In this document: positions 1 to 565 of the stretch, one piece after another
Layout of the letters: each line of letters begins with the position of its first letter
How positions within the stretch are numbered: position 1 is the first letter of the stretch
From: Escherichia coli
GTDB taxonomy: Bacteria; Pseudomonadota; Gammaproteobacteria; Enterobacterales; Enterobacteriaceae
NCBI RefSeq assembly: GCF_003334335.1
Contig: NZ_QOWQ01000171.1
DNA: 565 bases
Reading direction: 5' to 3' (one strand)
The notes under the pieces: model-generated
Told to the model about the DNA's origin: nothing
Seen by the model: the letters and a program-made list of their open reading frames with translations, nothing else
Database searches by the model: none
Translations under genes and position numbers: made by a program

Positions 1-552
1 CGCCTGGTTAAACGTCAGCCCTGCCGCCTGCCCGGCTCTGGAGAGCGTCAGCATACGATCGGCAGTCAGTCCGGCCTGATTGCCGGAAAGGACCAGCGTT
101 TTATTAAATTCTGAAAGCGTGGAATCCCCCTGGTACCAGGCGTACGCCAGCGCACCTGTCGCCACCGCCAGCGAGGTGACCCCGACCATCGGCAGGCTGA
201 TCGCACCGGCAAGCCCCCTGAACATGGGGATCATCCCGCCGAAGGAGTCCTTCACCTGACCGCCCTGTTGCAGCAGGATGAGCCAGGGATTCTGACCACC
301 GGCAAGCTGCGTGGCGATATCCGTAAACTGTGCGGGCAGGGTACGCATGGCTGCTTTATACTGCCCGACGGAAATCCCGGCTTTTTGTGCGGCCAGCGCC
401 TGACGGTTCAGACTCTGCTCAACGGCACCGGCGGTTTTTCTGGCGTCGGTATCCAGTCCTGAAAAATGACGCCTTACCCGGCTCATCTGCTCATCGAAAC
501 GGGCCGCATCCAGACTCAGGTCAATAACAAGATCACCAACCGGCTGGGACAT
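1..552 (-). CDS. H: Tail tape measure protein, lambda gpH-like; N-terminal 184 codons only, 3' end lies beyond position 1 of the window
   Basis: Seen in sequence: the minus-strand frame is open from ATG at 552..550 to the window edge (184 codons, no stop, checked codon by codon). Recognition: the translation closely matches my recollection of the lambda gpH N-terminus (MAEPVGDLVVDLSLDAARFDEQMARVRRHFSG..., ...AGGQSPWLILLQQGGQVKDSFGGMIPMFRGLAGAI...), with scattered, mostly conservative substitutions. The start is preceded by a strong Shine-Dalgarno. Identity level is not computed; it needs an alignment. Confidence 0.92.
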   Translation of the reverse strand, partial: MSQPVGDLVIDLSLDAARFDEQMSRVRRHFSGLDTDARKTAGAVEQSLNRQALAAQKAGISVGQYKAAMRTLPAQFTDIATQLAGGQNPWLILLQQGGQVKDSFGGMIPMFRGLAGAISLPMVGVTSLAVATGALAYAWYQGDSTLSEFNKTLVLSGNQAGLTADRMLTLSRAGQAAGLTFNQA

Positions 553-560
553 ATCTCACA

Positions 561-565
561 CCTCC
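561..565 (-). promoter_or_regulatory. Shine-Dalgarno ribosome-binding site for the tape measure gene (GGAGG, 8-nt spacer to ATG)
   Basis: Seen in sequence: the minus strand reads GGAGGTGTGAGATATG, with GGAGG 8 nt upstream of the ATG at 552..550. Inference: this is a canonical enterobacterial SD with appropriate spacing. Confidence 0.6.

Follow-up and report, generated by a model that had tools for sequence, protein, structure and literature searches.

The start of a lambda-type tail tape measure gene in Escherichia coli, under long-term purifying selection

The window analysed here is the whole stretch of 565 nucleotides of Escherichia coli DNA. On its minus strand, a stopless frame of 184 codons runs from position 552 to position 1, where it leaves the window; its translation begins MSQPVGDLVIDLSLDAARFDEQM. 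The frame, its start signals and the gene that precedes it are laid out as follows.

1..552, minus strand: lambda-type tail length tape measure gene (gene H homologue), codons 1-184, from translation, alignment, PDB and PHROG matches, and annotation.
550..552, minus strand: ATG start codon of H, which aligns with the lambda H start and is the annotated start in PhiR5_1 and JE86-ST05.
561..565, minus strand: Shine-Dalgarno-like GGAGG, 8 nt 5' of the H ATG, read from the sequence.
533..565, minus strand: end of gene T (gpGT frameshift product), comprising its last 10 codons and TGA (533-535), from the annotated T CDS and the reconstructed frame.
1..393, minus strand: part of the Pfam domain TMP_2 (PF06791), protein residues 54-184, from a Pfam scan.
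133..234, minus strand: hydrophobic stretch, residues ~107-140 (MIPMFRGLAGAISLPMVGVTSLAVATGALAYAWY), by Kyte-Doolittle analysis; counterpart of lambda gpH 116-140.

The H start context (GGAGG, 8 nt, ATG) is shared with lambda gpH, and the GGAGG preceding H occurs in lambda and in 88/88 related junctions. Upstream, the slippery site of the programmed G-T frameshift, G GGA AAG, is conserved, and no stop interrupts the GT fusion before the TGA at window positions 533-535. The annotated T coding sequence ends at locus position 6033 in both the PhiR5_1 and the JE86-ST05 loci, and the reconstructed C-terminus of T reads ...GGVRYVPAGW*. Lambda T ends at a TGA that is removed here by the replacement of AE with SQ at H codons 2-3 (ATGGCTGA); as a consequence, T/GT terminates four residues later (...RYVPAGW, compared with ...RYG in lambda), and T and H overlap by 20 nt in the window rather than by 8 nt. 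This SQ form of the T-H junction is identical in 86 of the 89 related loci. The 20-nt overlap, together with a GGAGG that lies within the end of T, would be consistent with the translation of the tape measure being coupled to that of its chaperone. A sigma-70-like promoter and an intrinsic terminator were sought on both strands of the window, and none was found. An Rfam scan of the window likewise returned nothing above threshold, the best hit being a plant miRNA at 20 bits against a gathering score of 90 (E = 0.48), a level expected by chance.

The window protein matches the PDB entry 8iyk_H, 'Tape measure protein', with E = 2.6e-103, and the tape measure family PHROG 4498 with E = 1e-121. 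Its residues 54-184 align with model positions 2-135 of the 208 in TMP_2 (E = 1.2e-48); in the full protein, taken from the chromosomal copy in JE86-ST05, whose window is identical, the same domain spans residues 54-256 (E = 5.7e-70). Two further domains of that copy lie beyond the window: TIGR01541 at residues 476-817, scoring 360 bits against a cut-off of 104.75, and Tape_meas_lam_C (PF09718) at residues 631-705 (E = 9e-21). No NCBIfam model matches the N-terminal fragment alone, as only a C-terminal domain model exists. TMP_2 and Tape_meas_lam_C are both shared with lambda gpH (NP_040595; PDB 8IYK chain H), as are the neighbouring genes G, T, M, L, K, I and J. By every sequence and synteny criterion tested, the encoded product is a member of the lambda gpH family.

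Escherichia phage PhiR5_1 (PV340545.1) carries all 565 bases with 100% identity, and so do eight complete E. coli chromosomes: JE86-ST05, JE86-ST02, UCPROB-001, UCPROB-002, S1-KEN-03-A, S1-KEN-04-A, 99RCEF and JNEC-KY204. Of these identical records, UCPROB-001 and UCPROB-002 alone have H on the minus strand, as in the window, which hints weakly that the window stems from a chromosome whose H is intact. The corresponding tape measure proteins carry the accessions XSB41330.1 in PhiR5_1 and, for example, WP_001625273.1 in the prophages, and one metagenomic viral contig is identical over the 552 coding bases. Of 5426 complete E. coli genomes, 3710 contain a match at 80% identity or more, the median number of matching places per genome being two. 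Stx2a-converting phages (LC727840 and about 30 related, unannotated records) have a tape measure gene with 95.6% nucleotide identity over the whole window. In the annotated carriers the frame is always called tail tape measure protein, and the gene 5' of H is always tail assembly protein T. Gene order around H is that of lambda, (Nu3/C)-D-E-FI-FII-Z-U-V-G-T-H-M-L-K-I-J; in both the PhiR5_1 and JE86-ST05 loci, H directly follows the chaperone genes G and T, which have a -1 frameshift site, and precedes M-L-K-I-J. The gene is thus already known, with identical sequences deposited and annotated, and is not new. PhiR5_1 itself is a complete lambdoid genome of 51 kb, with integrase, cI/cro, O/P, Q, lysis, terminase, head and tail genes; a full-text literature search on 'PhiR5_1' found no relevant paper. 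As a separate observation, positions 7915-9488 of the PhiR5_1 record are annotated as a pair of HipA toxin and 'HipD antitoxin' between kil and cI, in the immunity region.

For comparison with lambda, we used a global alignment to lambda H (NC_001416, 10542-13103). Residues 1-184 align with lambda gpH without gaps, 164 of the 184 being identical (89.1%) and 20 replaced, and the DNA differs at 87 of 552 bases (84.2% identity), distributed 13/13/61 over codon positions 1/2/3. A preliminary description of this DNA had listed differences from lambda gpH, namely SQ for AE at residues 2-3, I for V at 10, LDTD for TESD at 33-36, T for M at 71, N for S at 88 and D for N at 143. The alignment bears out every one of them, as A2S, E3Q, V10I, T33L, E34D, S35T, M71T, S88N and N143D, with D36 unchanged. 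The remaining replacements are A24S, K38R, A42G, V43A, S49N, V79I, T119S, A125V, D148E, V169T and T184A. The same description had reported no frameshifts or stops in 184 codons, in agreement with the open translation and the gap-free alignment, and had called the changes mostly conservative, which also holds: 18 of the 20 replacements have a BLOSUM62 score of 0 or above, and their mean is +0.95, whereas random missense changes of one nucleotide in the lambda codons average -0.45 (p about 5e-5). Its picture of scattered single-residue changes stands only in part. The changes are indeed of single residues and free of gaps, but they are clustered, 11 of the 20 falling in residues 1-49 and nine in the other 135 (Fisher p = 0.0055).

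Divergence from lambda is uneven in other respects as well. Third-position differences stand at 44% in codons 1-91 and at 23% in codons 92-184, and H nucleotides 301-360 contain a single difference. This unevenness may reflect mosaic ancestry or local constraint. A search for a recombination breakpoint inside the window by the maximum chi-square method gave only a borderline result (permutation p = 0.04), and we do not claim one. Over its full length, the protein of the carriers with an identical window has 857 residues, compared with 853 in lambda gpH, and is about 78% identical to it (670 of 859 aligned columns). In JE86-ST05 H (6014-8587), residues ~300-400 are only 32-57% identical to lambda, with indels, between flanks of 80-97%, and synonymous divergence from lambda is saturated there. 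Strong divergence of the central region is usual for mosaic lambdoid genes.

The bias of the differences towards third codon positions can be expressed as a measure of selection. The codon alignment against lambda H that the preliminary description had proposed gave, by the Nei-Gojobori method over the 552 bases, dN = 0.071 and dS = 0.616, hence dN/dS = 0.114 (95% interval 0.062-0.188 by codon bootstrap), a value that reflects the whole history of both lineages, gauges past selection rather than present function and is blind to very recent inactivation. None of 2000 bootstrap replicates exceeded 0.27, and the partition into synonymous and nonsynonymous differences from lambda is highly significant (Fisher p = 5e-20). 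For the full gene in its JE86-ST05 copy, dN/dS against lambda is 0.17. A scan of IMG/VR yielded 80 related loci, in all of which the 552 bases are ungapped, begin with ATG and lack stops; altogether, a stop or indel in this stretch is found in 0 of 89 related copies. The 90 sequences collapse to 47 unique alleles and 22 unique proteins, with 123 segregating sites among the alleles, divided 23/19/81 over codon positions 1/2/3, and pairwise pN/pS between the window allele and each of 45 closer alleles lies between 0.12 and 0.34. This stretch has evolved under long-term purifying selection. Among singleton variants, 10 are synonymous and eight nonsynonymous, the nonsynonymous share being above that at depth, which hints at some relaxed constraint or at mildly deleterious variants at the tips, and would also be seen if some tips lay in decaying prophages. 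The earlier judgement that we are dealing, at least over this portion, with a functional diverged allele and not with a decaying pseudogene is therefore supported, both by the dN/dS of 0.114 and by the absence of copies disrupted within the 552 bases.

That description had also called for a look at the rest of H beyond position 1, where frameshifts or insertions might lie, and here the outcome is divided. In all five inspected chromosomes with the identical 565 bases, H is open over 2574 nt, or 857 codons, and is found inside a complete lambda-type head and tail module. In PhiR5_1, the frame is split: a run of five G residues occurs where 21 related loci have six (ACGGGGACGGGGGGTAAATATGA), at H nt ~2234 and about 1.7 kb downstream, and from this 1-nt deficit the gene is annotated in two pieces of 777 and 79 codons. 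Over 12.5 kb of comparison between PhiR5_1 and JE86-ST05, this is the only frameshifting indel inside a CDS. We had considered that the PhiR5_1 record might be riddled with homopolymer errors, and rejected the idea on that count of one. A sequencing error at this one site is plausible, the change having the form of a homopolymer miscall. Among 68 assessable IMG/VR relatives, 58 have a full-length-like H (851-859 codons), eight are truncated at codons 400-836 and two are longer. All eight truncated relatives (about 12%) keep their first 184 codons open; an intact N-terminal quarter raises the odds of a whole gene but does not guarantee it. Longer frames are seen in the IMG/VR loci L048, with over 1184 stop-free codons in the DNA examined, and L039, with 879, which suggests that their 3' ends are altered or that they are fusions. 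PhiR5_1 and JE86-ST05 first differ at H nt 553, just past window position 1, and the last 370 nt of their H genes are 90% identical; the onset of divergence right after the identical window points to recombination within H among close prophages.

The G run in PhiR5_1 has counterparts in other records. At one G6 run (run A; PhiR5_1 ~8247, in the region of H nt ~2230-2355), a G5 occurs in PhiR5_1 and in the IMG/VR locus L066 and leads to a stop after 777 aa; L080 has a stop at the same place. At a second G6 run in the same region (run B), PhiR12_2_star has G5 (locus position 5366) and L010 has G7. Runs A and B are both flanked by the presumed gpH*/gpHC cleavage region on one side and the gpI-binding helix on the other. 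In PhiR5_1, the TGA that ends the first H piece overlaps the ATG of an in-frame methionine (CTGATGCGG), an arrangement that could permit coupled reinitiation. Run lengths of G5, G6 and G7 are thus seen in independent records, PhiR5_1, PhiR12_2_star, L066 and L010 among them. That the G6 runs in the last 350 nt of H are real slippage hotspots rather than sites of sequencing errors nevertheless strikes us as improbable. Were the slippage real, certain viable phages would produce the tape measure as a gpH*-like body plus a C-terminal piece with its own initiation, which includes the gpI-binding helix, and such a two-piece gene would mimic the proteolytic cleavage of lambda gpH.

We weighed three other accounts of the window. 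The open frame might be a product of chance in G+C-rich DNA, or the true gene might lie on the plus strand. The lack of stops is, on its own, weak evidence for a gene, because in 1.4% of window shuffles at least one frame stays open for 184 codons or more. No other frame of the window is open for more than 115 codons; that length is attained by frame 0 of the plus strand, which has only two stops. Such an antisense run is typical of a G+C-rich coding region, GC3 being 67%, and is no sign of a gene, and the plus-strand ORFs, none of which exceeds 65 aa from a start codon, are regarded as antisense noise. The plus-strand alternative is further countered by the lack of any Rfam family, promoter or terminator. 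It is the homology and the codon-position pattern, not the open frame itself, that provide strong evidence for the gene: the match to lambda gpH at E = 2.6e-103 and the 13/13/61 distribution of differences refute the chance-frame and plus-strand accounts, to which we attach next to no probability.

The other two accounts accept the gene and concern the state of the element that carries it. In one, the window comes from a cryptic prophage in decay, with H disrupted further downstream, the N-terminal part having merely escaped a hit so far and the low dN/dS recording a functional past. The split H of the identical carrier PhiR5_1 speaks for this account, as do the eight of 68 relatives that stop early at codons 400-836 with their first 184 codons open, and recent inactivation would be invisible to dN/dS. 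Against it, in all five inspected chromosomal carriers H is open over 857 codons and the head and tail genes on either side are complete. The G6-to-G5 homopolymer change of PhiR5_1, moreover, could be a sequencing error and is the only CDS frameshift in 12.5 kb, and the PhiR5_1 record gives E. coli C as host, in which the phage may have been propagated. We therefore consider decay unlikely. In the other, the gene is functional but resides in a domesticated element, such as a tailocin-like particle or a tail-borrowing satellite, rather than in an autonomous phage. Tape measure genes of this type are widespread, often in several copies, through the 3710 of 5426 complete E. coli genomes, and many of those prophages are defective. 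However, the 51-kb record that carries the identical allele also has integrase, cI/cro, O/P, Q, lysis and terminase genes along with complete sets of head and tail genes, and the chromosomal copies show the full lambda morphogenetic order, which makes a domesticated element very unlikely.

The window is thus, with high confidence, the 5' quarter of a lambda gene H-type tape measure gene of a lambda-like temperate E. coli phage or prophage, read from the minus strand and preceded by its ribosome-binding site and the overlapping 3' end of the chaperone gene T. The 20 differences from lambda are best read, with the same confidence, as long divergence under purifying selection on a working protein.

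The proposed function follows from homology with lambda. Lambda gpH is held by gpG/gpGT; it both nucleates and restricts the polymerisation of the gpV tube, its own length thereby setting that of the tail, and cleavage near its glycine-rich C-terminal region yields gpH* and a C-terminal fragment. By analogy, the gpG/gpGT chaperones would keep the tape measure protein of the window soluble and deliver it; the protein would then oligomerise inside the growing tail tube and, by its own length, would set tail length. In the lambda tail tip structures, residues 818-849 alone of gpH are resolved (PMC10721106). Processed to gpH* and a C-terminal fragment, lambda gpH is ejected to form a trans-envelope channel; gpH* is hexameric in the tail tube and forms the periplasmic channel, and residues 116-140 of gpH are the best, though uncertain, transmembrane prediction (PMC12617516). 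On ejection at infection, the tape measure protein encoded here may likewise form all or part of the channel by which DNA passes the cell envelope. Its residues ~107-140 (window 133-234) are a candidate counterpart of the proposed membrane-spanning element of lambda. In this stretch, Kyte-Doolittle means over 19 residues reach 1.71, and T119S and A125V are the sole differences from lambda.

The value of these results lies mainly in calibration, in that the lambda sequence assumed in the preliminary description was accurate and purifying selection on the gene holds quantitatively. Beyond correct annotation they are of little importance, the window belonging to a well-studied gene family that is present in about two thirds of complete E. 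coli genomes.
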